IMG/VR virus record: IMGVR_UViG_3300020172_000530
Span: 12,690 to 76,689 of that record
Direction: 5' to 3' (one strand)
DNA from: a virus
Length of the DNA: 64,000 nucleotides
Positions 28,359-54,318 of this stretch are shown here, in pieces; positions within the stretch are counted from its first letter, which is position 1; each line of letters opens with the position of its first letter. The notes below the pieces were generated by a model that saw only the letters and a program-made list of their open reading frames with translations, was not told the DNA's origin and ran no database searches. The position numbers and the translations under genes are program-made.

Positions 28359-28367
28359 GGATATGCT

Positions 28368-29369: not shown

Positions 29370-29398
29370 CATAATTATAGTATACTATTGTAATTATG
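29370..29398 (+). promoter_or_regulatory. Imperfect palindrome and putative late-type promoter (ATAATTA) upstream of the modification operon
   Basis: CATAATTA-TAGTATACTA-TTG-TAATTATG, followed by a GGAG RBS and GTG at 29407. Confidence 0.45.
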
Positions 29399-29406
29399 GA
29401 GTTTTT

Positions 29407-29757
29407 GTGGATCAAAATATTGAAAAAGCATTTGAAGTAAGTAATCTAATGGTCACAGTGGCCAATCAAAAACGTGCTCTAAAAGAAGAATACGAGCAAT
29501 CTCTTCTCTACTTTGAATATGGTGGTATTTTCAAGGCAGATAACAACACTATAACTTATATAAAAACTATAAAAGATTTGACTAAGGAAAAAAGGATAGT
29601 AATAGTTGATACTAATCTGACGCCAGTGCTTGTATTAGATATTGACAAATTTTTAGAATCCTTGCTAGACAGACATTTCCAAGCAAACAATTCTTATTTT
29701 GCCAAGTTTGATCTACTTAAGAAAAGTAGAAATATTAAAAATATACTAGATCTATGA
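29407..29757 (+). CDS. Hypothetical protein
   Basis: 116-aa ORF with GGAG RBS and ATGA overlap with the next gene. Confidence 0.6.
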   Translation: MDQNIEKAFEVSNLMVTVANQKRALKEEYEQSLLYFEYGGIFKADNNTITYIKTIKDLTKEKRIVIVDTNLTPVLVLDIDKFLESLLDRHFQANNSYFAKFDLLKKSRNIKNILDL

Positions 29758-30590
29758 GCAAGGGAATATTATTATTTGCTTTGAATTCAGAAATGAATTA
29801 TGTTAAGTTAGCGGTAAGACTAACCGAACGTATTAAGTATTATCTTGATTTACCTGTGACTATCGTAACTAATAGTGATGAATATCTACTCAAGAATTTT
29901 ACTTCAAGTTCTGAATTATTTGATCGTGTTATTAAGAAAGACGATGATACTACTCAAACGAAGAAATTTAGCGACGGTTATGGAGTTTCAGAAAGGTATG
30001 TATGGAAAAACTCTAATAGAGCAAGTGCTTTTGACATAAGCCCGTATGATCAGACGTTAGTGATGGATGTTGATTATGTAATTAATTCTAATTTTTTACT
30101 TAATGTGTTCGATCAAAATAAAGATTTTTTATGTTTTAAAGATTCTTATGATTTGGCAGGATGGAGAAATACAGCAGAGTTTGAATATATTAATCAGTAT
30201 TCCATACCTTTTTATTGGGCAACTGTGTTCTATTTTACAAAGACTAAACTAAACGAGTTGTTTTTTAGATTGGTAGAGTATATTAGAGATAATTGGGAGT
30301 ATTACAGATTACTTTATCAAATTAATGACAAGAAATACAGAAATGATTATGCCTTCAGTATAGCAATTCATATTTTAAATGGAACCGACTGTAATCTATT
30401 TTCTGATACGATTCCTGGAAAGATGTATTATACATTAGATAAAGATATTCTTGTGAAAATAAAGAATAACTCGATGTCTTTTTTAGTTGAAAAAGAAAGA
30501 ATGTTAGGAGAATTTACCGGAATCAAAATTAATGATTTAGATGTACATGTTATGAATAAGTTTAGTTTGTTAAGGGCATACGATGAGTAA
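29754..30590 (+). CDS. GT-A fold glycosyltransferase-like protein
   Basis: KGILLFA...Y...A and SPYDQTLVMDVDY (DxD motif). Confidence 0.6.
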   Translation: MSKGILLFALNSEMNYVKLAVRLTERIKYYLDLPVTIVTNSDEYLLKNFTSSSELFDRVIKKDDDTTQTKKFSDGYGVSERYVWKNSNRASAFDISPYDQTLVMDVDYVINSNFLLNVFDQNKDFLCFKDSYDLAGWRNTAEFEYINQYSIPFYWATVFYFTKTKLNELFFRLVEYIRDNWEYYRLLYQINDKKYRNDYAFSIAIHILNGTDCNLFSDTIPGKMYYTLDKDILVKIKNNSMSFLVEKERMLGEFTGIKINDLDVHVMNKFSLLRAYDE

Positions 30591-31416
30591 TAGAGGACAT
30601 TTATTTTTTGCTCAGAATTCTGGAGTAGATTATGTAACACAAGCATATATCGCTGCTTTAATGATTAAAAAATTTAACAAATATAATAAAACCTGTCTAG
30701 TTACTAATGATACAGTACCGATGAAATATTTGAAAGCATTTGATAAGATAGAAACTATTCCATGGTCAGATGATGCTGCTCAAAGTGACTGGAAAATAGA
30801 AAATCGTTGGAAACTAATACATGTCAGTCCTTTTGATGAAACATTAGTATACGATACTGACATGTTATTATTGTCTTCAAATGATCATTGGTGGGATTAT
30901 TTAAAGAGCCAAAGTGTTTCACTTACAAGCAAAGTTGTAAATTATAAAAATAATATTATTCAAGATACAGTTTACAGAAAAACTTTTATTGATAATACCT
31001 TACCTAATGTATATTTTGGTCTTCATTTCTTTAAGAAAAATAGAAGAGCTTATGAATTTTATAAATGGTTGGAAATTATTGTTAAAAATTGGAGATTGTT
31101 TTATAATGAACACACTCTGAATAATACACAAAAATTTTGTAGTATGGATGTCACGGCTGCTATAGCAACAAAAATAATGAATGCTGAAGAAGAATTTTCC
31201 ACAGCTAACCCGTTGACATTCGTACATATGAAATCAGCAATACAAGGATGGTACCCAGCTCCTGCTACATGGCAGTCTGCTGTAAGTGTACACTTAAATC
31301 ACAAATTAGAACTTAGAATTAATAATTTCCTTCAGCAAGGTGTATTTCATTATACAGAAGATAATTTTTTAACAGAAAACATTTTTAACACAGTAGAGGC
31401 AAGTTGTGGGATTTAA
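30583..31416 (+). CDS. GT-A fold glycosyltransferase-like protein (paralogue of previous)
   Basis: RGHLFFAQN...Y...A, SPFDETLVYDTDML (DxD) and FVHMK. Confidence 0.6.
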   Translation: MSNRGHLFFAQNSGVDYVTQAYIAALMIKKFNKYNKTCLVTNDTVPMKYLKAFDKIETIPWSDDAAQSDWKIENRWKLIHVSPFDETLVYDTDMLLLSSNDHWWDYLKSQSVSLTSKVVNYKNNIIQDTVYRKTFIDNTLPNVYFGLHFFKKNRRAYEFYKWLEIIVKNWRLFYNEHTLNNTQKFCSMDVTAAIATKIMNAEEEFSTANPLTFVHMKSAIQGWYPAPATWQSAVSVHLNHKLELRINNFLQQGVFHYTEDNFLTENIFNTVEASCGI

Positions 31417-31909
31417 ATTTTTTGTATATCATGATGAAGAAGGAAACATAACATCTATTACCAATGAAAAAAGATCTACTGGAGAGTATATTGAAGCAGA
31501 AGAGTCTGAGATATCAGATTTTCTAAATGGTGTAAAAGATTTTACCAAATTTAAAATTAATAGTTTATCATCTGGGTCAAAACAGATCAAATTAACACAC
31601 GATTCCTCTGCTCTTGTATACAAGGACTTTTATATTGTTAGTAATAGTATCGAAAATGAACAAGTTATTATTACTCATAATAACAAAACTAAATCCTGGA
31701 ATATAAAATTAAATGACGATGCACAACTGTTAAACTTTAGTTTTTACGTATGTAGAAAGGATAATTTAAATTTTTTAATTAGAGAAGTAACAGTGCCTCC
31801 TAAAAAAACTTTTTCGATACCGTTCTCTTATGTAGTCGAACAACAATCAGACGAACTAATTGTATTAGCAAAAAGAGTTCATGAATCTTATGGAATAAAT
31901 TATGTATAA
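31406..31909 (+). CDS. Hypothetical protein
   Basis: 167-aa ORF overlapping both neighbours in the operon. Confidence 0.55.
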   Translation: MGFKFFVYHDEEGNITSITNEKRSTGEYIEAEESEISDFLNGVKDFTKFKINSLSSGSKQIKLTHDSSALVYKDFYIVSNSIENEQVIITHNNKTKSWNIKLNDDAQLLNFSFYVCRKDNLNFLIREVTVPPKKTFSIPFSYVVEQQSDELIVLAKRVHESYGINYV

Positions 31910-32810
31910 AGTCAAAGTAGCAGATTGTGATGTGGTATATTTAAGTTATGATGAACCTAACGCAGAACAAAATTACTCTGATTTATTGACTAAAATACCT
32001 TGGGCTAAACGTGTACACGGAGTCGAGGGCAGTGATAGTGCCCATAAGGCCTGTGCTAGATTAGCAGATACAGAACGAGTCGTTATCATCGATGGTGATA
32101 ATATAGTTAGACCTGATTTAATTAACCAAGAAGTAGAGTTTTATAACGATGCCAATACTAATTGTGTGATTAGTTGGGGAGCAAGAAATATCATTAATGG
32201 TCTAGTTTATGGCAATGGCGGTGTAAAATGTTGGCCAACAGATTTGATACTTGATATGCGAACACATGAAAATGCCGAAGATACTAATACTAAGACACAA
32301 GTAGATTTTTGTTGGGATATAAATTATATCCAAATGGATACATGTATGAGCGACGTATACAATAACGGTAGTCCACAACAAGCATGGAGAGCAGGGTTTC
32401 GAGAAGGAGTGAAAATGAGTTTATTAGAAGGATCTAAACCTGTTAATGATAGACCATTTGATAGACAAATACATTGGAAAAATTTACATAGATTGTTGAT
32501 CTGGATGACAGCAGGTTCTGAAATCACAAACGGACTATACGCTATATTAGGAGCAAGACAAGGGTGTTACAAAACAAATTGTACAGATTGGGATTTCACT
32601 AATGTTAGAGATTTTAAGTATCTGAATAATCTGTATGAGGAAATTGTATCTGAAGTAAACTTAGATAAAGACATAACACGTTTAGGAATTGAAATTACAT
32701 CTCGATTAAAGATTCCTTGCCCTGCCCCATTTACTTCGGATCAGAGTATATTTTTTAAAACAGTGTATACGAATCCTCCTCGTATGAAAAATAAATCGGT
32801 TGTATCCTAA
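31902..32810 (+). CDS. GT2-like glycosyltransferase
   Basis: LSYDEPNAEQNY...P.AKRV.GV.G...AH.A.A...IIDGD, YGNGGVK and AWRAGFRE. Confidence 0.6.
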   Translation: MYKVKVADCDVVYLSYDEPNAEQNYSDLLTKIPWAKRVHGVEGSDSAHKACARLADTERVVIIDGDNIVRPDLINQEVEFYNDANTNCVISWGARNIINGLVYGNGGVKCWPTDLILDMRTHENAEDTNTKTQVDFCWDINYIQMDTCMSDVYNNGSPQQAWRAGFREGVKMSLLEGSKPVNDRPFDRQIHWKNLHRLLIWMTAGSEITNGLYAILGARQGCYKTNCTDWDFTNVRDFKYLNNLYEEIVSEVNLDKDITRLGIEITSRLKIPCPAPFTSDQSIFFKTVYTNPPRMKNKSVVS

Positions 32811-33496
32811 TGTACGATATCGCATTTATAAGCTACAAAGAACCCAATGCTGATAAAAATTGGGAGAATTTAACTAGTAGATTTCCTTGGGCAAAACGTA
32901 TTAGTCGTGTACGAGGAATACATATGGCGCACATCGCTGCCGCCAGCAAATGTTTTACAAACATGTTTTGGGTAGTAGATGGTGATGCTGAAGTTTTAGA
33001 AAGTTTTGATTTTAGTTTTACTACGAAAGAAACTAATTTCGTACATGTGTGGCGTAGTCGTAATCCTGTTAATGATTTAGAATACGGATATGGAGGTGTA
33101 AAATTACTTCCAAGATTAGCTACACTTAATATGGATACTACTAAGCCTGATATGACTACTAGTATTAGTCAACACTTCAGGCCAATGCCCGAAGTTAGTA
33201 ATATTACTGCTTTTAATACAGATCCTTTCAGTGCGTGGAGAAGTGCCTTTAGAGAATGTTGTAAATTATCAAGTAAAGTGATTGATAGACAGAAAACAGA
33301 CGAGACAGACCATCGATTGTTATCGTGGAAAATTAAAGGATTAGATAGACCATATGGTGAATATGCGATTCAAGGTGCCAAGGAAGGCGAAGAGTATGGT
33401 AAATTTTACAGCGGAAATTTAGAAGCACTGTCTAAGATTAATGATTTTGGCTGGCTGAAAGAACGATTCGAAAGGAATTCTAATGGAAGAAATTGA
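32810..33496 (+). CDS. GT2-like glycosyltransferase (paralogue of previous)
   Basis: ISYKEPNAD.N...P.AKRI..V.G...AH.AAA...VVDGD, YGYGGVK and AWRSAFRE. Confidence 0.6.
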   Translation: MYDIAFISYKEPNADKNWENLTSRFPWAKRISRVRGIHMAHIAAASKCFTNMFWVVDGDAEVLESFDFSFTTKETNFVHVWRSRNPVNDLEYGYGGVKLLPRLATLNMDTTKPDMTTSISQHFRPMPEVSNITAFNTDPFSAWRSAFRECCKLSSKVIDRQKTDETDHRLLSWKIKGLDRPYGEYAIQGAKEGEEYGKFYSGNLEALSKINDFGWLKERFERNSNGRN

Positions 33497-34334
33497 TAAG
33501 AGTGCGATATCTTGGTTACATGGATTACAAGAATTTTTTAAATTTCAAAACGATGAAATTTCCAGCAATTATGTAGATTTTATTTTAAAACTACTGTATG
33601 CTAATAATCCCGCTATCACAATAACAGAAGAAGCTGATATCGTAGAATTTATTGGTACATTAAGAAAGTTTGCTGACAATAATATTTTTAACGCTTTTCA
33701 CAAATATTATAGAGAAGAGCACAATCCTAAGCATTTACAAGATGCGTTCAGTAGAGGGCAAGTTCAGAGTAAAATTTGGTTAGCACACGAATTACAAAAG
33801 ATTCGAACAGAGCACAAGAATGTTTTAATTTTAGCAGGGTGGTATGGACAATTGCTTCAGTATTTTAAAGAAATAAAATTTGATAAAGTAAGAATAGTAG
33901 ACATGGATAAGGAAGCTTGTTTAATTAGCGACGATATTTTCAACTTACATTTAATTGAAAATTATAGAGTTAAGGCCATATGTGCTGATATAAACAATAT
34001 TATCATTCGTAAATCTGGATATATGCTTAATGTTGAAAACTTTAAGAATCTAGAAGCAAAGATTTTTAGTGAAAACTTTATGCCGGATCTTATTGTTAAT
34101 ACATCTGCTGAACATATGAGCGAGAAATGGTTCAATGATATACGTTTTAAGGATTTTGAAACTAAACCTCTTGTAGTAATCCAAAGTAATAATTTATTCG
34201 ATGTAGAAGAGCATATTAATTGTGTTCACAGTATCGATCATATGAAAAAAAATTATCCTATGAGTGAAATTTTCTATGAAGGAGAATTACAGCTAAAAGG
34301 GTACAAACGCATAATGCTTATTGGATTACCATGA
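33483..34334 (+). CDS. Class I SAM-dependent methyltransferase-like protein
   Basis: NVLILAGWYG (motif I-like), IVDMD (acidic end of strand 2) and DLIVNTSAEHM. Confidence 0.55.
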   Translation: MEEIDKSAISWLHGLQEFFKFQNDEISSNYVDFILKLLYANNPAITITEEADIVEFIGTLRKFADNNIFNAFHKYYREEHNPKHLQDAFSRGQVQSKIWLAHELQKIRTEHKNVLILAGWYGQLLQYFKEIKFDKVRIVDMDKEACLISDDIFNLHLIENYRVKAICADINNIIIRKSGYMLNVENFKNLEAKIFSENFMPDLIVNTSAEHMSEKWFNDIRFKDFETKPLVVIQSNNLFDVEEHINCVHSIDHMKKNYPMSEIFYEGELQLKGYKRIMLIGLP

Positions 34335-34558
34335 TAGATTTAGATCAGTTAGATCTTAGAACTTTACAAAAGGAATGTGCCCGTGCTGTTGCTACTATGG
34401 AAGCAACTAATAATAACATTTATAAGTTTAATAAACAAGCACACCATAATAGTCAAAACTGGTATAAAGCAGTGATTAAATGGTATATTGAACAGCATGG
34501 AGATTTACCAAGCCGTGTTGGACCAGGAGTAGCTGTTAAATTTGTAATGGATTATTAA
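34331..34558 (+). CDS. Hypothetical protein (75 aa)
   Basis: ATGA overlap with the methyltransferase gene. Confidence 0.55.
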   Translation: MIDLDQLDLRTLQKECARAVATMEATNNNIYKFNKQAHHNSQNWYKAVIKWYIEQHGDLPSRVGPGVAVKFVMDY

Positions 34559-34647
34559 TGGAAGAAGTTGACTTATCTACTATCGCTCATAGAGAACTAG
34601 AAGGGTATATGATATCAAAGAAAATTGGCATGCGACAATATGTATAG
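34558..34647 (+). CDS. Small ORF, 29 aa (MEEVDLSTIAHRELEGYMISKKIGMRQYV)
   Basis: Below the ORF-track cutoff. It starts in a TAATG overlap with the previous stop and ends overlapping the rSAM start at 34640. Confidence 0.35.
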   Translation: MEEVDLSTIAHRELEGYMISKKIGMRQYV

Positions 34648-35812
34648 ATATAACGAAATACAAACAGTTCATTTAGAAATGACAGATAATTGTAATGCTG
34701 CCTGTCCTATGTGTGCAAGAAATATAAATGGTGGCGAAGATAATCCACAGTTGCCAAAAACTGAACTAAGCCTGGATCATTGTAAAACTATATTTGAGCC
34801 CAAGTTTATCGCACAATTAAAACGCATGTATATGTGTGGTAACTATGGAGATCCTATTGCTGCTCAAGATACACTAGAAGTATTTGATTATTTTAGACAA
34901 CATAATACTAAAATGAATCTTAGTATGTACACTAATGGCAGTGCTAAAAAGACTGATTGGTGGAAACAATTAGCTCAGGTATTAGGAAAAAACAGTTATG
35001 TAGTGTTCAGTATAGATGGGTTAGAAGACACTAATCATTTATATAGACAAAATACTGTATGGTCTAAGATAATGGAAAATGCTCAAGCATTTATTGATGC
35101 AGGTGGCAACGCCCGCTGGGATTATATTGTGTTCGCCCATAATGAACATCAAGTAGATCAAGCAGATGCTCTCAGTAAAAAAATGGGTTTTACAAAATTT
35201 CAGTATAAAAAGAGTGCAAGATTTTTTAGTAATGTTAGTGGTACTACGAAAGAGATACATCAAGCAACTAATCGTAAGGGTGTGGCTACTACTTTGTTAC
35301 AGTCTCCTACAGATCCTAAGTATAGAAATAGTACTTTACAGGAGTTAAGTAAAATTGCTAGTGATAATGTTACCGAAGTGAAATTTTTGCCTAGTACTGC
35401 TAAAGACGCTGAATTACTACTAGGTAAACAGGTGTTTAGTTTCGATTTTAATAAAAAGAAAGAAATGGAAAAATATTGGGATTCGGTAGAAATTAAATGC
35501 AAAGTAGCAGAAGAAAAGTCAGTTTATATTAGCGCAGAAGGCATAGTTCAACCTTGTTGTTGGACAGCAGGTCAAATGTATGTGTGGTATTGGGAACCGT
35601 TAGGCGGCCAAATTTGGAAAGCAATTAATGAAGTGGGTAAAGATAATTTAAACGCCAAATATCACAGATTAGAAGATATAATTGACGGACGTTATTTTAC
35701 TGAAGTTGTTCCAGAAAGTTGGAAAAAATCAAGTTGTGCTGATGGGAAATTAGCTGTCTGTGCTAAAACCTGCGGTGCTAAATATGATGCCTTTAGTGCC
35801 CAGTTCAAATGA
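34640..35812 (+). CDS. Radical SAM protein 1 with C-terminal twitch/SPASM-like Cys cluster
   Basis: CNAACPMC, CGNYGDP, FSIDG and C-terminal C...PCC...C...CxxxC. The ATG at 34640 is preferred over the TTG at 34625. Confidence 0.85.
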   Translation: MYRYNEIQTVHLEMTDNCNAACPMCARNINGGEDNPQLPKTELSLDHCKTIFEPKFIAQLKRMYMCGNYGDPIAAQDTLEVFDYFRQHNTKMNLSMYTNGSAKKTDWWKQLAQVLGKNSYVVFSIDGLEDTNHLYRQNTVWSKIMENAQAFIDAGGNARWDYIVFAHNEHQVDQADALSKKMGFTKFQYKKSARFFSNVSGTTKEIHQATNRKGVATTLLQSPTDPKYRNSTLQELSKIASDNVTEVKFLPSTAKDAELLLGKQVFSFDFNKKKEMEKYWDSVEIKCKVAEEKSVYISAEGIVQPCCWTAGQMYVWYWEPLGGQIWKAINEVGKDNLNAKYHRLEDIIDGRYFTEVVPESWKKSSCADGKLAVCAKTCGAKYDAFSAQFK

Positions 35813-36885
35813 ATATAGATAATATTAAAAAAGTAGAATTAGAAATTACCAGTAATTGTAATGCTGCTTGTCCTGGTTGCGCACGAACACAAAATTCTGA
35901 TATCTTAGAAATACATAGTTTTGGATTAGAAGACCTAGTACGGATGTTCCCTACTCCAAGACATATACAAGGTAAAGAATTTAAATTCTGCGGTGTATTA
36001 GGCGATCCTATTGCTAATAAAGAATGTTATGATATGATAGAATATCTAGTTAGTAATAATGGGTATTGTCAAATTAGCACTAATGGTGGATTAAATTCAA
36101 CAATCTGGTGGAGTAAACTAGGAGAGCTAAGTAAGAAAACTAATTTAGTCGATGTTAATTTCTGTGTTGATGGACATAAGGAAACTAACCATATCTATCG
36201 AGTTAATACACTGTTCAGTGTTATAGAAAAGAATATGGCAGCTTATTCCCAGGCACAAGGACAAGCTACGTGGATTTACATAGTATTTGATCATAACGAG
36301 CACGAATTAACAACAGCACAGCATCATGCTGAACAATTAGGTTTCAAATTTGCCACAAGAACAGGTATGAGAAATAGTTATCATAACTGGGTAGCAGAAA
36401 TTAGAAATAAAGATAAAACCAAAGAACAAGTGGTAATTACTACAACAGGTAGTAAAGAACATAGTAAGAAAAATTTAGTAAAAGATCTAGATAAGTTTAT
36501 TTCAACGTATAATAAAGGAATGTTTATGCTTCCTATAGTTGATAAAAAGCAAGAAATACTGAATTCAATTACTTGTAAGTTAGTTCACGAAGGCGAAATC
36601 TTTATTGCTAGTAATCAAACCATGTGGCCCTGTTGTTTTTTATGGGATAGCATGTTTAAAAATAAAGAAAGTATTGTAGAAAAATTAAATGAATACAGCG
36701 AAGGATGGAACAGTTTACGCAATTACACTATTGATGAAGTGTTAGCTCATCCGTGGTTTGATCATATACTCGCTGAAAGTTGGAATCCCGCTCACGCTAA
36801 ACATTTTATAAGATGTATTAGAACTTGCGCATATAACAAAGCATATCAAAATGAAATCAATTATGTCAATAAAGAAACTACCTAG
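35809..36885 (+). CDS. Radical SAM protein 2 (paralogue of 1)
   Basis: CNAACPGC, CGVLGDP, FCVDG and C-terminal C...PCC...CxxxC. Confidence 0.85.
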   Translation: MNIDNIKKVELEITSNCNAACPGCARTQNSDILEIHSFGLEDLVRMFPTPRHIQGKEFKFCGVLGDPIANKECYDMIEYLVSNNGYCQISTNGGLNSTIWWSKLGELSKKTNLVDVNFCVDGHKETNHIYRVNTLFSVIEKNMAAYSQAQGQATWIYIVFDHNEHELTTAQHHAEQLGFKFATRTGMRNSYHNWVAEIRNKDKTKEQVVITTTGSKEHSKKNLVKDLDKFISTYNKGMFMLPIVDKKQEILNSITCKLVHEGEIFIASNQTMWPCCFLWDSMFKNKESIVEKLNEYSEGWNSLRNYTIDEVLAHPWFDHILAESWNPAHAKHFIRCIRTCAYNKAYQNEINYVNKETT

Positions 36886-42952: not shown

Positions 42953-44171
42953 CACATATTGTCTTCAACCCTTTAGGGAAATAACTATAAAAGATTTCAC
43001 CGGCGACAAGCTAAAAACATTCTGGCCTTGTTGTATGATGGCTAATCAAATTACGGAAAATCGAGACACCAATGTTTTAGAAATTAAAAATGCTAATGAG
43101 CTAACTCCGCAAGAAATGTATGATCATCCGAGGATGGTATTATTAAGAAACAATTTGCTGAATGGTATTAAAGATTCTGCTTGTGAAGTTTGCTGGCACC
43201 AAGAAGAAAGAGGTCTCAAATCGTTTAGGCAATTTAATAATGAAAATTCAAGCGTTCACTCCGACGACGGATTGTCTAGCATTGATATAACTGCTTCTAA
43301 TATATGTAATCTAAGATGTCGAATGTGTACTCCTACGAGTAGCCATCAATTAATGATAGATCATCAATTCTTCGAACAGAATCAGTTATTGGATAAAGTT
43401 AAATCTGTTACTAAGAGATGGGGTATTTTAAATAAAGCATATAAGACAACGGAATCTGTTCAATGGAAATGGATGCTAGAAAATACCGATAAAATTAAAT
43501 TGCTAAAGGCCAGCGGCGGCGAGCCATTTTACGACAATAAGATTGTTAAACTTCTTGAAAAATATATAGAAACAGATAACGCAAAAAATACTATATTAAG
43601 TTTTCACACTAATGCTACACTATTTGACGATAACATGATCAATATATTAAATCAATTTAAAATGAATGACCATGTGTTTAGTGTAGACGGTGTTGGAAAA
43701 ACTTATGAATACATAAGGTATCCTGCTACGTTTGATCAACTTGAAAACAGTGTAATTAAATATTTGAAAAATGTTCGAAATTATAAAACTCCGATACAAT
43801 TTACAGTAATTGTTTCTGCTCAAAATTTATTAATTTTAAATCAATATATAGAATGGACACGATCACTTCCAGCTATCACATCGCCTCATTTTTCAGAAAT
43901 ATATGATCTTAATCGTGGGATTGCTATAAAGCATTTACCTAAAAAACTTTTACTTCAAGCTAAAACAAATTTAGAAAAATACACATTGAATTTAAACAAT
44001 CATTCTGATTTTGAGGTAGAAAGTTTAATAAAGTCGATTGATAATGCAATTGCTGAAAATGCTGAAAATAAACAATTAGTCAAGGAGGAATGTCAATTGT
44101 TCGACTTATCTAGAAATCAATCTTACAGAAGTTATCTTCATCCTGATTTAGTAAATTGGCTAGACTCATGA
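42939..44171 (+). CDS. Radical SAM protein 7 with N-terminal twitch-like domain
   Basis: YCLQPF...PCC...CEVC, then CNLRCRMC, SGGEPF and YIRYPA.F. Confidence 0.88.
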   Translation: MKNSNTYCLQPFREITIKDFTGDKLKTFWPCCMMANQITENRDTNVLEIKNANELTPQEMYDHPRMVLLRNNLLNGIKDSACEVCWHQEERGLKSFRQFNNENSSVHSDDGLSSIDITASNICNLRCRMCTPTSSHQLMIDHQFFEQNQLLDKVKSVTKRWGILNKAYKTTESVQWKWMLENTDKIKLLKASGGEPFYDNKIVKLLEKYIETDNAKNTILSFHTNATLFDDNMINILNQFKMNDHVFSVDGVGKTYEYIRYPATFDQLENSVIKYLKNVRNYKTPIQFTVIVSAQNLLILNQYIEWTRSLPAITSPHFSEIYDLNRGIAIKHLPKKLLLQAKTNLEKYTLNLNNHSDFEVESLIKSIDNAIAENAENKQLVKEECQLFDLSRNQSYRSYLHPDLVNWLDS

Positions 44172-44737
44172 AAGTATTAATTACCGGAAATAAAAATTTT
44201 GGGATTGCTAAAGAGCTATTCCAGTTGTATCCAGATGCTACCTTTGTAAGCAAGACTGCAGGAGTTGATTTGACTACACAAACAGGACACACTCACTGCG
44301 CTGAATTATGTCTAGAACATGATATCTTTATTAATTGTGCTGCTTTATGGAAATTTAATCAAACAGTTCTTTTAGAAACAGTTTATAAGGCCTGTATTAA
44401 TGTTAATCATGATATACATATCATAAATGTAGGAAGCACTACAGACAGAGTCAAAAATGGAAAATCATGGTTATATAATGCTGAGAAAAAAGCATTAAGA
44501 GATTATTCCAACACTTTAGGAATAGCAGGTGTATGGGACAAAGGACCGAAAGTCAGTTATATAAGTTTTGGAACATTAAGTAATAATCAGGACAAGCATC
44601 CTGACAGACGAACGATGGATATAAATTTAGCAGCACAGTATATCAAATGGATCATAGATCAGCCTAAAGAAATCAACATCAACGAACTTAGTGTAGATCC
44701 TTTACAGAATGAAAGGTGGTATAAAAATGAGTCTTGA
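44168..44737 (+). CDS. Short-chain dehydrogenase/reductase (SDR)
   Basis: KVLITGNKNFGIA Rossmann motif, DIFINCA, IINVGS and YNAEK (YxxxK). ATGA overlap at 44168. Confidence 0.75.
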   Translation: MKVLITGNKNFGIAKELFQLYPDATFVSKTAGVDLTTQTGHTHCAELCLEHDIFINCAALWKFNQTVLLETVYKACINVNHDIHIINVGSTTDRVKNGKSWLYNAEKKALRDYSNTLGIAGVWDKGPKVSYISFGTLSNNQDKHPDRRTMDINLAAQYIKWIIDQPKEININELSVDPLQNERWYKNES

Positions 44738-45845
44738 AAATGTAATCTGTCCTTTACCATGGCATCATATCGCTATAAGACCTAACGGTAGAGTATATCC
44801 GTGTTGTTATTTTAGACATGAAGATACTCCCGAAGAGTTTAATCTATCTCATACAGATGTGTTTAATCATCCATTCTTATTAGATGTCAGAGAACAAATT
44901 AAAAATGGTAATCCTGTATCTGGATGTAAACAATGTTATCAGAATGAAAAAACTTCTGGAAGAAGTATGAGATTAGAGTCCTTAGAAAACTCAAAAGAAA
45001 TTACAGGAAAACCTTTTACTATTCCAGATCAGCCAACTCTAATTTATATTGATTTAGCACTAAGTAACGTATGTAACAATAGATGTAGAATGTGTGGTCC
45101 TGAGCTTAGTACTAATTGGTATCCGGATGCCAAGGCTTTAGGAATACCAATAAACAAAGGTATTATAGAAAATAAAGATCCAGTGGAAAAGATAGATCTT
45201 TCTCGATTACAATATTTAAAATTAATAGGCGGTGAGCCTATGTTAGAACAAGAAAAATTTATCAAAATTCTTGAACGTTGTGATTTACCACAGTTGTCAA
45301 TATTTCTTGCTACTAATGTTACTACAAGGCCTAATGATGATCTAATGAAATTATTTAGACGTTGTAAACAAGTAAAAATTGCCTGTAGTATTGATGCTTA
45401 CGGAAAATTAAATGACTTCCTACGTAAAGGCAGTGTATGGGAAGAGATAGATAACAATTTAAGATGGTATTCTAACAATTTTGAAGTTGTGATGATTCAC
45501 TCTGTTATCAGTATCTACAATATAAATCAAATAGAGCTATTGTTAAAATATGTTAAAGACGAATATCCAAATGTTCATTTTCAATTTGTAATGGTAGATG
45601 GTCCTGATTGGATGCGTCCTTCTAATCTACCAGTTGAAATTAAAGATAAAATAATGAAACGAATTAACAAATTAGATTATGAAGAAATAATAGAGCTGAG
45701 AGGGTTAGTATATGATCATATTGCCATGCAAGGAAATTTTGCCAAGTTTAAAGAAATGGACGATAAATTAAACCAATTAAGAAATGAACATTGGAAAGAT
45801 TCTAATCCAGAACTGTACGAAATGTTAAAAAAATATTATGAGTGA
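44727..45845 (+). CDS. Radical SAM protein 8 with N-terminal twitch-like domain
   Basis: ICPLPW...PCC...CKQC, then CNNRCRMC and IGGEP. Confidence 0.88.
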   Translation: MSLENVICPLPWHHIAIRPNGRVYPCCYFRHEDTPEEFNLSHTDVFNHPFLLDVREQIKNGNPVSGCKQCYQNEKTSGRSMRLESLENSKEITGKPFTIPDQPTLIYIDLALSNVCNNRCRMCGPELSTNWYPDAKALGIPINKGIIENKDPVEKIDLSRLQYLKLIGGEPMLEQEKFIKILERCDLPQLSIFLATNVTTRPNDDLMKLFRRCKQVKIACSIDAYGKLNDFLRKGSVWEEIDNNLRWYSNNFEVVMIHSVISIYNINQIELLLKYVKDEYPNVHFQFVMVDGPDWMRPSNLPVEIKDKIMKRINKLDYEEIIELRGLVYDHIAMQGNFAKFKEMDDKLNQLRNEHWKDSNPELYEMLKKYYE

Positions 45846-47010
45846 TCTAAAGAAAAGCAGCTATGATTTTACCAAAGTTCCTTACGACGATATCGTTCGT
45901 GTTGGACAGCGTACCATGCTGTACAAAGACATGTTCACTGTAAGTTGGTTGCTTGGCAGGTATTGTAATTATCGCTGTAGTTACTGTTGGCCATACGCTC
46001 GTAGTGATAGTAAGGACCATAGACCTACAGAACTATGTCTGAAAACTATCGACGAAATAAAACGTCAAGCAAGAGAACGGAATTTTAATAGTTTTCATTT
46101 TAGCCTAAGTGGAGGCGAACCTACTTTTCATCCTGGATATATAGATATTTTATCTCATCTCAATAGTGACGTAGAGAATACTAATTACACTAGCGTTCAT
46201 ATGACTAGTAATATGAGTAGATCTGTAGAATGGTTTGAAACTAAGTATTGTCCGGCAGTGAACAAATTCCATAGAGCTAGTATAACAGCCAGTCTACACA
46301 CAGAACATGTAAACACTAAAGAAAAAATGCAGGACTTTGCAGACAAACTTATGCTTTGTCAAAAGTATGATGTACAGGTAACTATCAATATGGTTATGGT
46401 ACCAGAATGGTTTGATAAGGATTATGATAATGCATTATTTTTTCATGAACAAGGTATCAATGTTACATTAAAACCACAGAGCGATCCTACAGCTAGTTTT
46501 GTTGTTGACGGGTATACTTCTGAAATGTTAGAAAAATTACACAATGGTATGCCACAAAGAGCGTTTACAGAAAGTAAAGCACAGTTATACAATCTTGTAA
46601 AAAGACCAGAACCAAAATTTTACAAAACACCAGATCCAATTTATAAAGAAGAAAATTCTACAGTCCCGCAACATTTTCAAGTTGAATTTGTAGACAAGAA
46701 TAAAAAAGTATGGTATATGGATCAAGCAGAACGATTTAATGCTTTTAATTTTAATAAATTCCAAGGTTGGGAATGTTCAAGCGGGTATCGTAGTATCATT
46801 ATACGCGAGCCGGATGGTAGTATAAAACGTAGTTATAGTTGTTATGATGTTCCTTTAGGTAATATCGAAACAGGATTTCAACTGTTCGATGGACCAAAAA
46901 CTTGTATTAGTCCAAGTTGTGTAAGCAGTGCCGATAGTAAGATTCCTAAACGTGCTCCTGGTACAGATCTGCCCTTGTGGCCAGGTGATAACACTTTTAA
47001 ATCAGATTAG
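45838..47010 (+). CDS. Radical SAM protein 9 (paralogue of 6)
   Basis: VSWLLGRYCNYRCSYC, LSGGEPT and C-terminal FQGWEC..G...C...C...C..SAD. Confidence 0.88.
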   Translation: MSDLKKSSYDFTKVPYDDIVRVGQRTMLYKDMFTVSWLLGRYCNYRCSYCWPYARSDSKDHRPTELCLKTIDEIKRQARERNFNSFHFSLSGGEPTFHPGYIDILSHLNSDVENTNYTSVHMTSNMSRSVEWFETKYCPAVNKFHRASITASLHTEHVNTKEKMQDFADKLMLCQKYDVQVTINMVMVPEWFDKDYDNALFFHEQGINVTLKPQSDPTASFVVDGYTSEMLEKLHNGMPQRAFTESKAQLYNLVKRPEPKFYKTPDPIYKEENSTVPQHFQVEFVDKNKKVWYMDQAERFNAFNFNKFQGWECSSGYRSIIIREPDGSIKRSYSCYDVPLGNIETGFQLFDGPKTCISPSCVSSADSKIPKRAPGTDLPLWPGDNTFKSD

Positions 47011-48363
47011 TCCCCTATAACCTCCACGTATTGATTTTATCCACCATTCTCCTACGTTTATTGTAGCGTACCGATCATAATTAAACATTATTGTTTCTTT
47101 CCAGCTTTCGTTTAAATTGTTCTTTGCTTTAATATCTAGACTATCTATCCATTTCATTTTTTCAATAACTTGATCTAATTCTATATGCAGGATAGGATGA
47201 GGATTAAAATCTAAATGTTCGTAAGTCTTAAATCCAAAGTATTTGATCATTCTACTAAGATGCTGGCCGCCGAAAGTTAAAAATGGTAATCCTTCTACGA
47301 TAGGTTTTGCGGTTTTTTCTGTCAGCATGGAGGAAGTAAATCCGTCTTCAGTGTAACCAAACCCTATTGGAAAATCAAAAGTCTCTAGTACTACATTATA
47401 CATGATATCTTCTACTTGGTTTCTTGAAACTATTTCACCGACCCACGGCTTTCTGGAACCAGTTTCGTCTATTGGATCAATAATTTTAATATCGTCTAGA
47501 ATATTTTCTAACTCAGGAGTAACCCATTTGAGTTGATCTGGTATTTCTTTTGCATATTCTAAAAATAAATTTTTTAGTGGTTTAAGAAGACTGTATTTTC
47601 CCTTTCCTTCGACCAGATTTTCTTTGTGCACTCTCATAAAAAATAGCATTCTGTTCAATCGTTCTGTGTAAGAATATGCTACCCACTGCGTTGTATTTTC
47701 TGTTATTTTTTTCTTTTTTATAGAATCAAATAGCATGTCTCTATTACTAATAATATCTTTTGAAATTTTAGGCTTGTAGTAAAAGAAAGGTAATGGAAAC
47801 CATACATTAGTAAGATAAGGAGACGTGATAAAATAATTTTGACTTTCTGGAACAGGTCTATATATAGGATGCACAACAATTATAGGATGCCGGTCTAGAC
47901 CATGAAAAAACTGATCGCATTCAGTAAGATCATTGCCTTTTTGCATAATTTTACTGTGATAGCCTGTGCTCATAAAGTCGTGCGGGTTAGTAATTTCCAT
48001 TGAGCTATCGATGATAATTGGAATGTTGTGTTTTTTAATAAACTTAATAATTTCGTAGTCAATTCCTAATAAGTTTAAAAAATGAAATGTTTGAAATGCG
48101 TGCATAACATTAATAAAATAATAGACTTCATAGTCTTTGGATATCTCAGTATGCCCTACTTCTTTAATAAAATCTTTAGCTGAAACGAATTCTATAGTTT
48201 TGTACAAGTCACTTCTAAGAGTATCAACAATTTCGTCAAAATTTGGCACCCCAATAAATTCTCTTCTATTAACATCCATGGCAGATTTATAAAGTTTTTC
48301 TAGAAGTGTAATTGGTCTGCCATCACTGGCGATTTCTTCTACAAGTAAAATTATTTTTTTCAT
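47002..48363 (-). CDS. Hypothetical protein, possibly glycosyltransferase-related
   Basis: C-terminal NVVLET...LTEKTAKPI...PF...GG...GFKTY, reminiscent of the TEK motif region of GT10-like proteins. Confidence 0.45.
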   Translation of the reverse strand: MKKIILLVEEIASDGRPITLLEKLYKSAMDVNRREFIGVPNFDEIVDTLRSDLYKTIEFVSAKDFIKEVGHTEISKDYEVYYFINVMHAFQTFHFLNLLGIDYEIIKFIKKHNIPIIIDSSMEITNPHDFMSTGYHSKIMQKGNDLTECDQFFHGLDRHPIIVVHPIYRPVPESQNYFITSPYLTNVWFPLPFFYYKPKISKDIISNRDMLFDSIKKKKITENTTQWVAYSYTERLNRMLFFMRVHKENLVEGKGKYSLLKPLKNLFLEYAKEIPDQLKWVTPELENILDDIKIIDPIDETGSRKPWVGEIVSRNQVEDIMYNVVLETFDFPIGFGYTEDGFTSSMLTEKTAKPIVEGLPFLTFGGQHLSRMIKYFGFKTYEHLDFNPHPILHIELDQVIEKMKWIDSLDIKAKNNLNESWKETIMFNYDRYATINVGEWWIKSIRGGYRGLI

Positions 48364-49007
48364 CGTATGTATGGAGCAAACACTGATTGTTTGCTTAGAT
48401 CTTTGTATGTAAGATTGCTGCCTGTATCTGGATTGTATTCGCTTATATTTTCCATCAATAATAACCCTTTAGCTGCTTCTTCTGGAGTCATATACATATG
48501 ATACCCAATACAAGAATAATCATCAGAATCGTGTGGAATATCTTTGTGTCTACCGTCGTAGATCATAGGCCTACACCACTCTACAAAAGCAGCATCGTTA
48601 GTAAGTATAACACCCCCTTTTCCTATCTTTAACGTTTTTCTATGATGAAAACTTACACAAAAATACGAATTGTCAATATACATTCCTTGACAAAATCTAG
48701 TAGCAGCATCAATGATACTTGTGAAGCCAATTTTATACCAGCCCGACCACTCTTTATCTATAAATCGAATATAATTTCCAGCATGAATGGCTTGCATAAC
48801 AGGGCTTGAATAAGTGTGTTTGGGGAATTCTAAAACTTGACCTTTGATGTCAAGATATTTAAGACAAAGAAATATACCGTTGCTACAGCTATCTACGCAT
48901 ACAGCATAACGACTTCCTGCGTATTCTGCTAGACGTTGTTCGAATAGTGTAACAGCGTCCCAAGGATCATTTATCTGGTATCCTTTATTTGTGAGCTCGG
49001 TTATCAT
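48360..49007 (-). CDS. DegT/DnrJ/EryC1/StrS-family PLP aminotransferase (short form)
   Basis: FEQRLAEYAGSRYAVCVDSCSNG, IIDAA and SFHHRKTLKIGKGGVILTND (PLP lysine). Confidence 0.8.
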   Translation of the reverse strand: MITELTNKGYQINDPWDAVTLFEQRLAEYAGSRYAVCVDSCSNGIFLCLKYLDIKGQVLEFPKHTYSSPVMQAIHAGNYIRFIDKEWSGWYKIGFTSIIDAATRFCQGMYIDNSYFCVSFHHRKTLKIGKGGVILTNDAAFVEWCRPMIYDGRHKDIPHDSDDYSCIGYHMYMTPEEAAKGLLLMENISEYNPDTGSNLTYKDLSKQSVFAPYIR

Positions 49008-49719
49008 AAGCGATATCGTTATCGTGCCAGTACAAGCTTCTATGTGGCGGATCGTCTTCTAAATATTGACTATTACTCACATAGTAAAATAATCTAAGTG
49101 TGTTTCTACTTACTCTATCCGGACATTGGATTGGTGTCGGATAACCATGGAATCCTGTTTTATGATACTGCCAAATTACACAACGATTGAATTTTGTAAA
49201 AACGCTTTGTACTAGATTTTTATTTGTATCGTCGTAAAATTCAATATGTCCACCAAACTCCTCTTGCCATTCTTCAGTGAGATATACAATTAGTGTCAAC
49301 TTTCTATGTAGTTTAAGTTCGTCATTCCAGTTAAAATCTGTATGAACTTTTAAACTATCACCGTTAAAGCTTCGACTATATCCTGCTCCAGTTAGATGAG
49401 GATCGGGTAACAGACCTTGTATGCCAGTAATTTTTTCTAACCACTTTAATCCTGTAGTGCTGTGTAATTGATTAACTATGTTAACTGCTTCTGGACTATA
49501 ATCCAAATTCTTACATTCCTTCATATAGCTACCACGACGTGTGAATTCAGTCCAGTGTTCAGTAGGTACACTCTCACATTCTGCTTGTAGTTTTTTTGCT
49601 GTTGATATAGGTAAAAAATCATCCAACACAAGTATTGGATGAGGTTGAGTTTTTACAAATGTTGAATGAAGTTCTTGAAAATTCGAAAACTTATTTTTTA
49701 TATATTGTATATCATACAT
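48985..49719 (-). CDS. 2OG-Fe(II) oxygenase (prolyl-hydroxylase-like fold)
   Basis: PHPILVLDDFL, LKVHTDFN (HxD), W.EEFGG.IE, FNR.VI...FHG (distal His) and R.TL..FYY. Confidence 0.85.
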   Translation of the reverse strand: MYDIQYIKNKFSNFQELHSTFVKTQPHPILVLDDFLPISTAKKLQAECESVPTEHWTEFTRRGSYMKECKNLDYSPEAVNIVNQLHSTTGLKWLEKITGIQGLLPDPHLTGAGYSRSFNGDSLKVHTDFNWNDELKLHRKLTLIVYLTEEWQEEFGGHIEFYDDTNKNLVQSVFTKFNRCVIWQYHKTGFHGYPTPIQCPDRVSRNTLRLFYYVSNSQYLEDDPPHRSLYWHDNDIAYDNRAHK

Positions 49720-50384
49720 CAGTTATTTATAGTGCTAATCATAGGAAATACATTGGATATAACTTCTGCACATGCCTTTGCCACTTCCTGATGTTCTTTT
49801 TGGGTACCATTAGCACTACGTAGCTCAATAAAATGTACCCAACTTCGCAGTGTACCATTCATATACAATCGACTCACTGTATTACCTTCTGGTAAGATAG
49901 CACGAGCTTGTTCCTTGGCAATACCTTTAGCAATTGCTTCAGCATAAGTTTCTTTTACATATTGAATAAGGAATTGCTGTTTAGCGTTCCACCAAGATTG
50001 TAATTCAACATCCTCAGTTTCTATACTATTTTGTCTATTCTTGGTGTCTTGTAATCTTGCTTCTCGAAGAACAAAGTCAAGATCTTTAGTTGGGTCTGCA
50101 TATCGTTGCGAGAACTCTTGGAATGAAAAGCTACGGTGCCGTAAAATCTGTCTGGCAATATCTCTTGTGGTTTCAATTTCGATACAGGCAGAGACCATTT
50201 CGAGTGGCGACCAGTGCTGATGTTTGATGAGGTATCGTATAAGTTTTTCGCTTGTCTCAGTGTTAAGCTGGTTGCTTGGATTGCTAACACGGGCGCAATA
50301 TGCGATAAGTTCTTGTGCGTCGCCGATACCCAGTTGTTCGAATTCTCTAGTTGGTTGACTGTAGGATAAAAGTTTGACATTCAT
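49719..50384 (-). CDS. thyX: Flavin-dependent thymidylate synthase
   Basis: ThyX signature RQILRHRSFSFQEFSQRY, plus HWSPLE and EQARAILP. Confidence 0.95.
   Translation of the reverse strand: MNVKLLSYSQPTREFEQLGIGDAQELIAYCARVSNPSNQLNTETSEKLIRYLIKHQHWSPLEMVSACIEIETTRDIARQILRHRSFSFQEFSQRYADPTKDLDFVLREARLQDTKNRQNSIETEDVELQSWWNAKQQFLIQYVKETYAEAIAKGIAKEQARAILPEGNTVSRLYMNGTLRSWVHFIELRSANGTQKEHQEVAKACAEVISNVFPMISTINN
49724..49731 (-). promoter_or_regulatory. T4-type late promoter TATAAATA
   Basis: Exact TATAAATA on the minus strand, inside the thyX 3' end and 4 nt before the oxygenase ATG. Confidence 0.5.
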
Positions 50385-54289: not shown

Positions 54290-54318
54290 ATTATACTGCG
54301 AAAGACAAGTGATGTCAA
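54290..54318 (-). promoter_or_regulatory. Consensus sigma70 promoter TTGACA-17-TATAAT
   Basis: Minus strand reads TTGACA tcacttgtctttcgcag TATAAT, upstream of the ATPase gene. Confidence 0.85.

Follow-up and report, generated by a model that had tools for sequence, protein, structure and literature searches.

A conserved island of radical SAM and glycosyltransferase-like genes behind the tail-fibre genes of an uncultured giant phage: a possible glycan-tailoring pathway

The window analysed, a 64,000-nucleotide stretch from an uncultured giant phage (IMG/VR record IMGVR_UViG_3300020172_000530), contains an island of about 20 soluble enzymes directly behind tail-fibre genes. The genes upstream encode tail, fibre and baseplate proteins (PHROGs), while the downstream side adjoins ThyX and the replication module. 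The last two genes before the island, B and C (27441–29345, plus strand), encode paralogous fibre-module proteins of 305 and 325 residues that follow PHROG tail-fibre genes and have no family matches of their own in PHROGs or the other family searches. The last fibre-like gene stops at 29345, and 61 nt later begins a single plus-strand run of genes (29407–47010) in which, according to the ORF calls and junction table, each junction overlaps or abuts (gaps ≤0). The initial observation of a multi-enzyme radical SAM chain behind tail genes, described in the original prediction as an unbroken run of overlapping genes, is thus confirmed. The chain comprises nine intact CxxxCxxC radical SAM genes of three architectures, four GT-A-type transferase genes, a predicted class I methyltransferase fold, a PP-loop ATPase and a short SDR; a 2OG oxygenase (Z), a short DegT form (Y) and a protein of unknown family (X) are encoded on the opposing strand and converge on it. 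Every protein of the island is predicted to be soluble, and none to be a membrane protein.

The CxxxCxxC motif is present in all nine proteins for which it had been reported. Seven of them reach the gathering score of the radical SAM superfamily (Pfam PF04055, 29.5), and the other two, M (29.4) and N (23.2), both match with E ≤ 1e-4, so that motif and profile together place all nine in the superfamily. Five of the nine score 201–419 bits against NF033640 (N_Twi_rSAM, twitch domain-containing radical SAM protein; whole-protein cut-off 170 bits) and are members of this family: O and P (36851–39599; 418.9 and 201.3 bits), R (40446–41747; 392 bits), T (42939–44171; 222.6 bits) and V (44709–45845; 257.7 bits). 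Their N-terminal twitch domain is marked by the invariant residues Cys16, Cys34, Cys97 and Cys100, which precede Cys153, Cys157 and Cys160 of the CxxxCxxC motif. M, N, S and W score far below the cut-off and therefore lie outside the family. M and N (34625–36885; starts at 34625 and 35809, with the true start of M probably the ATG at 34640) carry a Cys-rich C-terminal region that partially resembles SPASM/twitch domains (Pfam, NCBIfam) and are 28% identical; cysteines are invariant in alignment A7. S (41744–42952; PF04055 42.7 bits), which has a Cys-rich C-terminal tail, and W (45838–47010; PF04055 51.2 bits) make up a further type, also at 28% identity; W is the final gene of the chain and the best conserved in the island, with a median identity of 82% among phages. 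The sole match related to known radical SAM sugar-tailoring enzymes is that of R to the BlsE model TIGR04466 (NCBIfam), at E 8e-4 and with a score far under the cut-off of that model. A literature search on NF033640 found no characterized member and no paper on the N-terminal twitch domain; the family is only catalogued, and its name alone fails to explain phage arrays of 4–10 radical SAM genes.

Four DxD glycosyltransferase-like genes had been proposed, and these form two paralogous pairs. E and F (29754–31416; 278 and 277 residues; hhalign 98.6%) are putative GT8-like nucleotide-diphospho-sugar transferases according to the names of their Atlas feature neighbours, some of which carry PF03407 or PF01501, and the DxD motif is invariant in both alignments; Pfam, NCBIfam and PDB profile searches returned no matches for either. 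In H and I (31902–33496; 302 and 228 residues) Asp64 and Asp66 are invariant (alignment A2). The AlphaFold model of H (pLDDT 90.6) superimposes on GT-A enzymes with an r.m.s.d. of ∼3.3 Å over ∼140 aligned residues (VIA Z 9–10.3), and both proteins are predicted to have a GT-A fold with the DxD motif. The DxD part of the proposal therefore stands for both pairs, and the fold for H, but none of the four proteins reaches the Pfam cut-offs (GT2 scores for the H/I type are only 16.5 bits versus a cut-off of 23.3, leaving these proteins as GT2-like), which counts against a role in sugar transfer. GT-A folds are found in nucleotidyltransferases too.

Two further assignments of the original prediction, a methyltransferase and an SDR, are supported. 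J (33483–34334; 283 residues) is predicted to adopt a class I SAM-dependent methyltransferase fold: its model (pLDDT 88) matches methyltransferases in Foldseek (E ∼1e-6, probability 1.00 to many of them, e.g. NRMT2, TehB and BioC), with Gly119/Trp120 and Asp142 invariant. U (44156–44737; 193 residues), which is kept in most relatives, conserves a GNKNxGLA loop together with Ser94, Tyr107 and Lys111 and matches SDR structures in a PDB profile search (E from 2e-7 to 1e-3), suggesting that it belongs to the SDR superfamily even though it is shorter than classical SDRs. The gene described as QueC-like fared differently. Q (39596–40453; 285 residues) has the invariant SGGxDS motif of PP-loop ATP pyrophosphatases and, towards its C terminus, a cluster of cysteines of which Cys227, Cys262 and Cys265 are invariant. 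It stays under the Pfam cut-offs, matches TilS, asparagine synthetase and NAD synthetase weakly (ATP_bind_3, 16.3 versus 27 bits; TilS N-terminal domain, 20.4 versus 93.6 bits) and gives no match that passes the cut-off for QueC (7-cyano-7-deazaguanine synthase). Two smaller genes known only in phage versions, D (29407–29757; 116 residues) and G (31406–31909; 167 residues), gave no match in Pfam, PHROG or NCBIfam; orthologs of D occur in 25 viral loci and in Ralstonia phage RsoM2USA (RsoM2USA_354), and G is weakly conserved (14 loci). A 29-residue ORF, L (34558–34647), is a doubtful gene that occurs only in the window and in one relative (L001); in relatives without it, the preceding gene, K, directly abuts M.

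The genes that meet the chain head-on had been taken for an oxygenase, an aminotransferase and a glycosyltransferase-like gene. The first holds: Z (48985–49719, minus strand; 244 residues) matches the 2OG-Fe(II) oxygenase family PF13640 at 54.1 bits. Y (48360–49007, minus strand; 215 residues) matches the DegT family PF01041 (68 bits, cut-off 19.8) and retains the SFHxRK PLP-lysine motif in alignment with PDB entry 9bgp. However, it is short: a full DegT/DnrJ/EryC1 fold-type I PLP domain has ∼360 residues with a Schiff-base lysine, and Y lacks ∼80 internal residues (profile positions ∼95–178) and the C-terminal domain. Two Bdellovibrio clusters encode homologs of equal length (38–44% identity) behind genes for a UDP-sugar dehydrogenase and an epimerase, which argues that the short form is not the product of plain decay. 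For X (47002–48363, minus strand; 453 residues) a glycosyltransferase-like nature is a weak lead; one of its structural neighbours (TM 0.58) carries a fused epimerase/dehydratase domain, its Atlas neighbours are viral hypothetical clusters and its orthologs occur only in L001 and L002. No ortholog of Z was found among the fetched loci. Since the three genes are confined to the two closest relatives of the window or are missing from relatives, they are placed outside the conserved pathway as accessories.

At least 22 related IMG/VR contigs, each with 4–10 radical SAM genes, show the order of fibre genes, island and ThyX at the same site, and in 22 or more relatives the genes ahead of D are B/C-like. 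By its baseplate the phage clade is Rak2/Atu_ph07/XacN1-like. Intact orthologs of island genes keep a matching order in 49 viral contigs, which places the island far beyond chance. A shorter counterpart is found in the culturable phage RsoM2USA (MG752970.1), where ORF347–355, all annotated as hypothetical, comprise a fibre-like gene (ORF355, B/C-like), D, E, F, G, H, an N_Twi radical SAM gene, I and J. The corresponding proteins are 22–47% identical (33–39% for E/F versus RsoM2USA_353/352), but this locus has one radical SAM gene instead of nine and lacks K, M, W, Q and U. ORF356, ORF359 and ORF361, near the RsoM2USA island, are virion proteins according to mass spectrometry (PMC8504454). The synteny check thus upholds the prediction of a real, conserved tailoring island linked to tail-fibre genes in relatives. 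A complete relative (G126; 399,796 bp) carries six epimerase/dehydratase-family genes outside the island, indicating that the clade handles nucleotide sugars.

A core consisting of the methyltransferase J, the GT-A proteins H/I and the radical SAM enzymes M, O and W is also present in Bdellovibrionota chromosomes. The three radical SAM enzymes are ∼45–65% identical to their bacterial orthologs (M, 43–48%; O, 58–63%; W, 54–66%), H/I are 39–45% identical and J is 26–37% identical. In the cultured Bdellovibrio sp. HCB2-146 the core genes are interspersed with genes for two members of the UDP-glucose/GDP-mannose dehydrogenase family, an NAD epimerase/dehydratase, a short DegT protein, a 7-TM protein and five GT2 enzymes; the dehydrogenase–epimerase–DegT module occupies an equivalent position in a second locus (L102), and other bacterial core clusters contain GT2 genes and a carbamoyltransferase. 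Sampled Bdellovibrionota genomes have up to 11 N_Twi copies over the cut-off, a number for which the family name does not account either. More distant NF033640 members lie beside a ∼2,300-residue PKS in Poseidonocella and Limisphaerales, in the latter together with a GT28/EryCIII-type glycosyltransferase, and, judged by gene sizes, likewise in Sphingomonas; these surroundings suggest the tailoring of small molecules and not of peptides. As the bacterial core is mixed with nucleotide-sugar and GT2 genes, sugar tailoring is favoured over peptide or DNA modification, in line with the sugar chemistry read from the enzyme set in the original prediction. The four soluble GT-A-type transferases with an invariant DxD motif argue for the same chemistry.

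SPASM/twitch radical SAM enzymes are familiar chiefly as peptide-maturation enzymes, and peptides are common substrates of SPASM-type enzymes (also among the NCBIfam neighbours). The island enzymes might accordingly act on protein, with the radical SAM enzymes crosslinking, epimerizing or otherwise modifying either K, as a RiPP- or cofactor-like precursor, or the fibres, and with the transferases then glycosylating the product. K (34331–34558; 75 residues) is a phage-only protein that is conserved over its full length (18 invariant columns in alignment A4), its HMM finds 41 viral loci and its stop codon overlaps the start of the radical SAM gene M in most relatives, indicating translational coupling; fold searches with H also bring up ThuS and SunS, the S-glycosyltransferases of glycocins. 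However, many other GT-A enzymes match H equally well. K has no Cys residue and is evenly conserved, with no leader/core pattern, and it is missing from RsoM2USA and from all Bdellovibrionota clusters that contain M, O and W. Family searches of the island found no RRE/PqqD, protease or exporter/transporter. The peptide branch of the original prediction is weakened by the bacterial clusters, in which the same radical SAM core stands among nucleotide-sugar and GT2 genes and no small peptide gene was found; modification of a peptide or protein by the radical SAM enzymes is regarded as improbable. The island does not qualify as a RiPP cluster, K being the sole candidate peptide.

It is less probable still, and indeed very unlikely, that the transferases, methyltransferase, PP-loop enzyme and radical SAM enzymes decorate phage DNA or tRNA as a protection against host nucleases. 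ThyX and the replication module adjoin the island, DNA is often the target of phage glycosyltransferases, and tRNA and 7-deazaguanine pathways typically combine PP-loop with radical SAM enzymes. Against this, the complete relative contains neither a ThyA-family hydroxymethylase (PF00303) nor TGT/DpdA (PF01702), the NCBIfam equivalogs for FolE, QueD and QueE found no match, the model of J matches small-molecule and protein methyltransferases and not DNA methyltransferases, and the bacterial homologs are surrounded by GT2, UDP-sugar dehydrogenase and 7-TM genes. Two entry routes were considered, a ThyA-family hydroxymethylase for hmC/hmU glycosylation and DpdA/TGT with preQ0 genes for a 7-deazaguanine pathway; the window has only ThyX, and as judged by these entry enzymes neither pathway is recognized.

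A glycan-building and glycan-editing pathway in the cytoplasm, with its product attached to an acceptor on the virion or its fibres, is therefore the preferred explanation, and for chemistry and acceptor taken jointly it is considered somewhat more probable than even. In such a pathway E/F and H/I would draw on nucleotide sugars to put together a short glycan chain, which J would methylate. Each of the nine radical SAM enzymes would take a hydrogen from a sugar carbon, the outcome being an oxygen-independent oxidation, dehydration, epimerization, deoxygenation or C-alkylation; U would reduce keto intermediates and Q would amidate a carboxylate or acetamido group. Y and Z may contribute extra edits in this phage, and turnover of the radical SAM cassette (4–10 genes per relative) would diversify the product. 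The acceptor, which is the weakest link of the proposal, would most likely be one of the fibre proteins whose genes lie immediately upstream, B and C being the candidates. The site between fibre genes and ThyX, fixed in 22 or more relatives, and its counterpart in RsoM2USA speak for this explanation, as do the predicted solubility of every island protein and the epimerase/dehydratase-family genes of the complete relative; the absence from the phage island of a nucleotidyltransferase, flippase, polymerase and initiating transferase counts against it. The product is linked to the virion by gene position alone.

The same sugar chemistry could instead be directed at the host during infection, either to remodel an envelope glycan, as an LPS/CPS precursor on the inner leaflet, or to make a soluble glycoside, and could serve to block superinfection or re-adsorption at release, as in the proposal for pelagimyophage GT8 genes. 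O-chain modification has been argued for GT8 genes and radical SAM cassettes near pelagimyophage tail fibres (PMC7029224), and the 7-TM protein and many GT2 genes of the bacterial clusters are typical for envelope glycans. Perfect sigma-70-type promoters precede the island in some relatives (L003/L047 and L005), which fits early expression and means that co-expression with the late fibre genes is not required. However, membrane proteins, flippases, polymerases and lipid-carrier transferases are all missing from the phage island, whose site behind the fibre genes has been kept over the deep divergence between the IMG/VR clade and RsoM2USA. A host target is accordingly judged unlikely, if less so than protein modification.

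BtrN, DesII and BlsE, sugar-tailoring enzymes of antibiotic pathways, join an auxiliary-cluster (twitch) domain to the radical SAM core and are encoded alongside aminotransferase, SDR and glycosyltransferase genes. In these pathways, however, the twitch domain is C-terminal and there are one or two radical SAM enzymes, whereas the island has nine and the twitch domain of its NF033640 members is N-terminal. The virion glycosylation of chlorovirus PBCV-1, whose A64R is among the fold matches of H, resembles the island in its soluble viral GT-A enzymes and methyltransferases encoded beside structural genes, and mycobacteriophage virion glycosylation is a comparable virus-encoded system; neither is known to include radical SAM, PP-loop or SDR enzymes. 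Published parallels among phages are the host-recognition clusters of marine T4-like pelagimyophages, in which radical SAM cassettes accompany GT8 genes (PMC7029224), and a T4-like environmental genome with 12 radical SAM genes (PMC5332604). They share with the island a variable block near giant structural or tail-fibre genes, glycosyltransferases and the gain and loss of radical SAM cassettes, but the pelagimyophages of PMC7029224 belong to a different clade, and the conserved core, its bacterial counterpart and the three radical SAM architectures are not described in either paper. As both merely note the cassettes, the statement that there is no characterized phage pathway with such an enzyme set is upheld.

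An AU-rich stem-loop or palindrome (29370–29398, plus strand) lies 8 nt ahead of the Shine–Dalgarno sequence of the first island gene. It occurs once in the window, with a folding energy of −9.9 kcal/mol (z −4.0), and a stem is present at the equivalent position in eight of nine relatives, with differing stem sequences.

The island lies between a fibre/baseplate module and a minus-strand module on the ThyX side, in a window that covers 64 kb of an IMG/VR viral contig 76.7 kb long (CheckV completeness about 22%). Within the first 29 kb lie the gene for a baseplate wedge protein, with Atu_ph07, Phosso, SCTP-2 and PA5oct-type jumbo phages as the nearest isolate relatives (about 30% identity), and, directly 3′ of the wedge gene, a single plus-strand ORF of 5169 aa (window 2592–18101) that is followed by several tail-fibre or collar-fibre proteins (PHROG). 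In Ralstonia phage RsoM2USA the counterpart position of this large ORF is occupied by ORF361 (2541 aa), which mass spectrometry confirms as part of the virion (PMC8504454). Past 49.7 kb, the minus strand encodes ThyX, a MoxR-type ATPase, a VWA/metallopeptidase pair and an RNase H-like exonuclease. The unbroken chain of genes anticipated directly after the tail genes is borne out by the ORF calls and a junction table: the first gene begins 61 nt past the stop of the final fibre-module gene, and from 29407 to 47010 all genes overlap or abut their successor. No membrane segments are predicted in the island proteins.

The enzyme content agrees largely with the original prediction. All nine radical SAM proteins contain the CxxxCxxC motif and match PF04055, and they fall into three architectures, comprising M and N, in which the radical SAM core leads and a Cys-rich region is C-terminal, O, P, R, T and V, in which an N-terminal domain with four conserved cysteines precedes the core, and S and W. 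The five proteins of the second group clear the cut-off of NF033640, the N_Twi_rSAM family with a twitch domain ahead of the core (201–419 bits versus 170). Since no characterised member of this family was found, the presence of five of the nine enzymes within it raises the prospect of new oxygen-independent carbohydrate chemistry. Searches of PDB profiles with M and the N_Twi profile returned only generic matches to the radical SAM core (NifB, MoaA, SkfB and viperin). A tenth radical-SAM-like ORF (282 aa; window 57177–58025, minus strand) scores just below the PF04055 cut-off at 28.2 bits and belongs to the replication/nucleotide module outside the island.

The four glycosyltransferase-like genes form two paralogous pairs, E/F (hhalign 98.6%) and H/I, each with an invariant DxD motif. 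H is modelled as a GT-A fold (pLDDT 90.6), and the ESM Atlas neighbours of E and F are of the GT8/nucleotide-diphospho-sugar-transferase type. PDB profile searches with H/I, J and F gave no match, and the two dUTPase matches that were all a search with E produced (E-values 0.7–1.0) were judged to be noise. J has a class I methyltransferase fold, and the short SDR U carries a Ser-Tyr-Lys triad. The proposed QueC-like enzyme, Q, retains an invariant PP-loop SGGxDS motif and a cysteine cluster but fails to qualify as QueC. The prediction for the three genes that meet the island head-on was likewise correct in part: Z is a 2OG-Fe(II) oxygenase and Y is of the DegT-aminotransferase type in a short form (215 aa) that retains the PLP lysine motif, but X, thought to be glycosyltransferase-like, belongs to no family. 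Conservation of this short form in bacteria led to the rejection of decay as an explanation for Y.

When IMG/VR was scanned with O, 49 loci were recovered, 44 of which contain an O ortholog (72–91% identity). Gene-by-gene comparison of these relatives reveals a fixed order consisting of the fibre genes A and B/C, then D, E, F, G, H, I, J, K and M, followed by a variable radical SAM run that always includes O, by U and W, and finally by ThyX on the opposite strand. Between J and W there are 4–10 radical SAM genes per relative (median 6), compared with nine in the window. Linkage to the tail genes, which the original prediction had set as a test, was positive: at least 22 loci have B/C-like genes immediately ahead of D. 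In at least 17, the gene after W is ThyX. The head-on trio is accessory, given that X and Y occur in the two closest relatives only and Z in none, and all three were ruled out as core members because they are missing from nearly all relatives. A 29-aa ORF (L) between K and M (window 34558–34647, plus strand) is seen elsewhere only in the closest relative and is probably not a conserved gene, as the stop of K overlaps the start of M in other relatives. Searches of isolate phages by whole-island megablast or by tblastn with W gave no match. A small version of the island (ORF354–347) is present in the culturable phage RsoM2USA (343.8 kb), where fibre-like ORF355 is followed, in the order of the window, by D, E, F, G, H, one N_Twi radical SAM gene, I and J; the neighbouring ORF356, 359 and 361 encode virion proteins identified by mass spectrometry (PMC8504454).

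A bacterial scan with O, using one genome per species, identified orthologs (58–63% identity) in many Bdellovibrionota, including on closed chromosomes. These loci also carry M (43–48%), W (54–66%), J and H or I, together with extra radical SAM, U-like and PP-loop genes that vary between loci; D, E, F, G and K are absent from them. Genes above the NF033640 cut-off number 6–14 each in five Bdellovibrionota genomes, and at least one is present in 26 of 121 sampled Bdellovibrionota genomes versus none of 14 controls. The cluster of about 37 kb in the cultured Bdellovibrio sp. HCB2-146 (at about 1.858–1.895 Mb) contains O (59%), W (56%), M (46%), J, U, Y (38%) and more radical SAM genes, interleaved with two genes of the UDP-glucose/GDP-mannose-dehydrogenase family, an NAD epimerase/dehydratase gene, five GT2 genes and genes for a fatty-acid hydroxylase and for a 7-TM protein. 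A dehydrogenase, epimerase and short DegT module follows an R-type radical SAM gene both there and in a MAG locus (L102), while other bacterial clusters include GT2 genes, QueC-like genes, a carbamoyltransferase and a B12-radical SAM gene. In Poseidonocella, in Limisphaerales and, judging by gene sizes, in Sphingomonas, distant NF033640 members have a PKS of about 2,300 aa as their neighbour. The giant ORFs following these members are located at L103:13221–20174, which is of the KS-AT-KR PKS type with an NMO domain, and at L106:12989–19726 and L114:12703–19734; in the Limisphaerales locus (L106) a GT28/EryCIII-type glycosyltransferase is also adjacent. Together, the three loci resemble a cluster of glycolipid or polyketide type that is so far uncharacterised, and the bacterial context of the core and of the distant NF033640 members is one of small molecules and sugars, not peptides.

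A sugar is thus the substrate class best supported by the enzyme set and the bacterial gene context. A complete 399,796-bp relative contains six epimerase/dehydratase-family genes, indicating that this clade handles nucleotide sugars, and it contains neither a ThyA-family hydroxymethylase nor TGT/DpdA, which weakens the case for DNA modification. Tailoring of a peptide, for which K (75 aa) is the candidate, was weighed below that of a sugar: K has 18 invariant positions and its overlap with M is kept in most relatives, but it is missing from the bacterial core loci and from RsoM2USA, displays no leader/core pattern and is accompanied by no RRE, protease or exporter. Complex prediction for K and M gave a score of 0.00, which counts neither for nor against binding. 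The island is real and conserved, and it is best read, with moderate confidence, as a radical-SAM-rich pathway that tailors a glycan with the virion or its fibres as acceptor. The absence of export machinery from the island fits a cytoplasmic acceptor.

A quick maximum-likelihood tree was built for O and rooted on the paralog R, which sits on a long branch. All phage sequences form one clade in it (SH-aLRT 96) beside Bacteriovoracaceae, a topology consistent with a single transfer between that lineage and phages in either direction. Low-GC MAG contigs labelled Flavobacteriaceae, Neisseriaceae, Planctomycetota, Rickettsiales, Gammaproteobacteria, Verrucomicrobiales, Chloroflexota and Acidimicrobiaceae (L050–L052, L071, L072 and L076–L078) also fall within the phage clade, and three of them (L051, L071 and L072) have the phage-only gene K and the phage gene order. 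These contigs probably derive from jumbo phages and were mis-binned into bacterial MAGs.

It is conceivable, if quite improbable, that the radical SAM arrays form an iterative 'glycan editing' system for receptor-binding fibres, one that two kinds of predator of bacteria, phages and Bdellovibrio, have in common. The tail fibres of phages and, in Bdellovibrio, the phage-like MAT fibres would then carry a sugar coat, the variable set of N-terminal-twitch enzymes would rewrite the carbon skeleton of its sugars, gain and loss of cassettes would diversify new enzymatic chemistry in an arms race, and phages would have gained their copy in a single acquisition from a Bacteriovoracaceae-like lineage. 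The position of the phage islands against fibre genes and the single phage clade of O beside Bacteriovoracaceae agree with this scheme, as do a fibre-like giant ORF flanking the array in one fetched locus (L082) and a 1965-aa fibre protein with a C-terminal Peptidase_S74 chaperone domain, a hallmark of phage-like MAT fibres (PMC10769870), that adjoins the HCB2-146 radical SAM/glycosyltransferase cluster (L129:5081–10978; G005:C1:1897080–1902977, minus strand). However, the arrays of two other bacterial genomes (G002 and G004) have no S74 gene in their vicinity, and as only one of the four S74 genes in HCB2-146 is so placed, S74 genes were rejected as general neighbours of bacterial arrays. The adjacency in HCB2-146 echoes that of fibre genes and islands in phages and is taken as a lead only.

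Phage-encoded glycosylation and, in antibiotic pathways, the tailoring of sugars by radical SAM enzymes are both known, and the island is best read as a variant of virus-encoded glycosylation not known before; we know of no earlier phage island devoting 12 kb to nine radical SAM enzymes. A T4-like environmental genome with 12 radical SAM genes (PMC5332604) and a pelagimyophage tail-fibre 'host recognition cluster' with GT8 genes and radical SAM cassettes (PMC7029224) have been described, function being addressed in neither report. Should the product decorate fibres or the host surface, it would give predatory bacteria and jumbo phages that are widespread in aquatic habitats a new, fast-diversifying layer of host recognition or exclusion. 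The system is experimentally tractable through the one-radical-SAM version in RsoM2USA and the much larger version in HCB2-146.

An AU-rich stem-loop (window 29370–29398; −9.9 kcal/mol, z −4) precedes the Shine-Dalgarno sequence of the first island gene, D, by 8 nt. Single folds place a stem of differing sequence at the same position in eight of nine relatives, and RNAalifold over the upstream regions found no consensus because the stems differ in both sequence and register. This putative element may be an operator or serve in mRNA processing or stability. A perfect TTGACA-17-TATAAT site overlaps the stem-loop position before the island in two relatives (L003 and L047), with a similar site in a third (L005); no convincing promoter precedes the island in the window itself. 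Sigma-70 promoter-like and terminator-like sites between 25000 and 44900 are no commoner than in shuffles, so that the timing of expression is unreadable from the window. The sites in the three relatives suggest that the island may be expressed independently and early, which would fit the same sugar chemistry acting on a host target such as the envelope, a reading held with low confidence. Gene position favours the fibres. An inverted-repeat census of the window yielded nothing informative. A further perfect TTGACA-17-TATAAT site (window 54290–54318, minus strand) lies upstream of the MoxR-type ATPase gene, indicating that at least some minus-strand genes of the phage are read from promoters of the host type.
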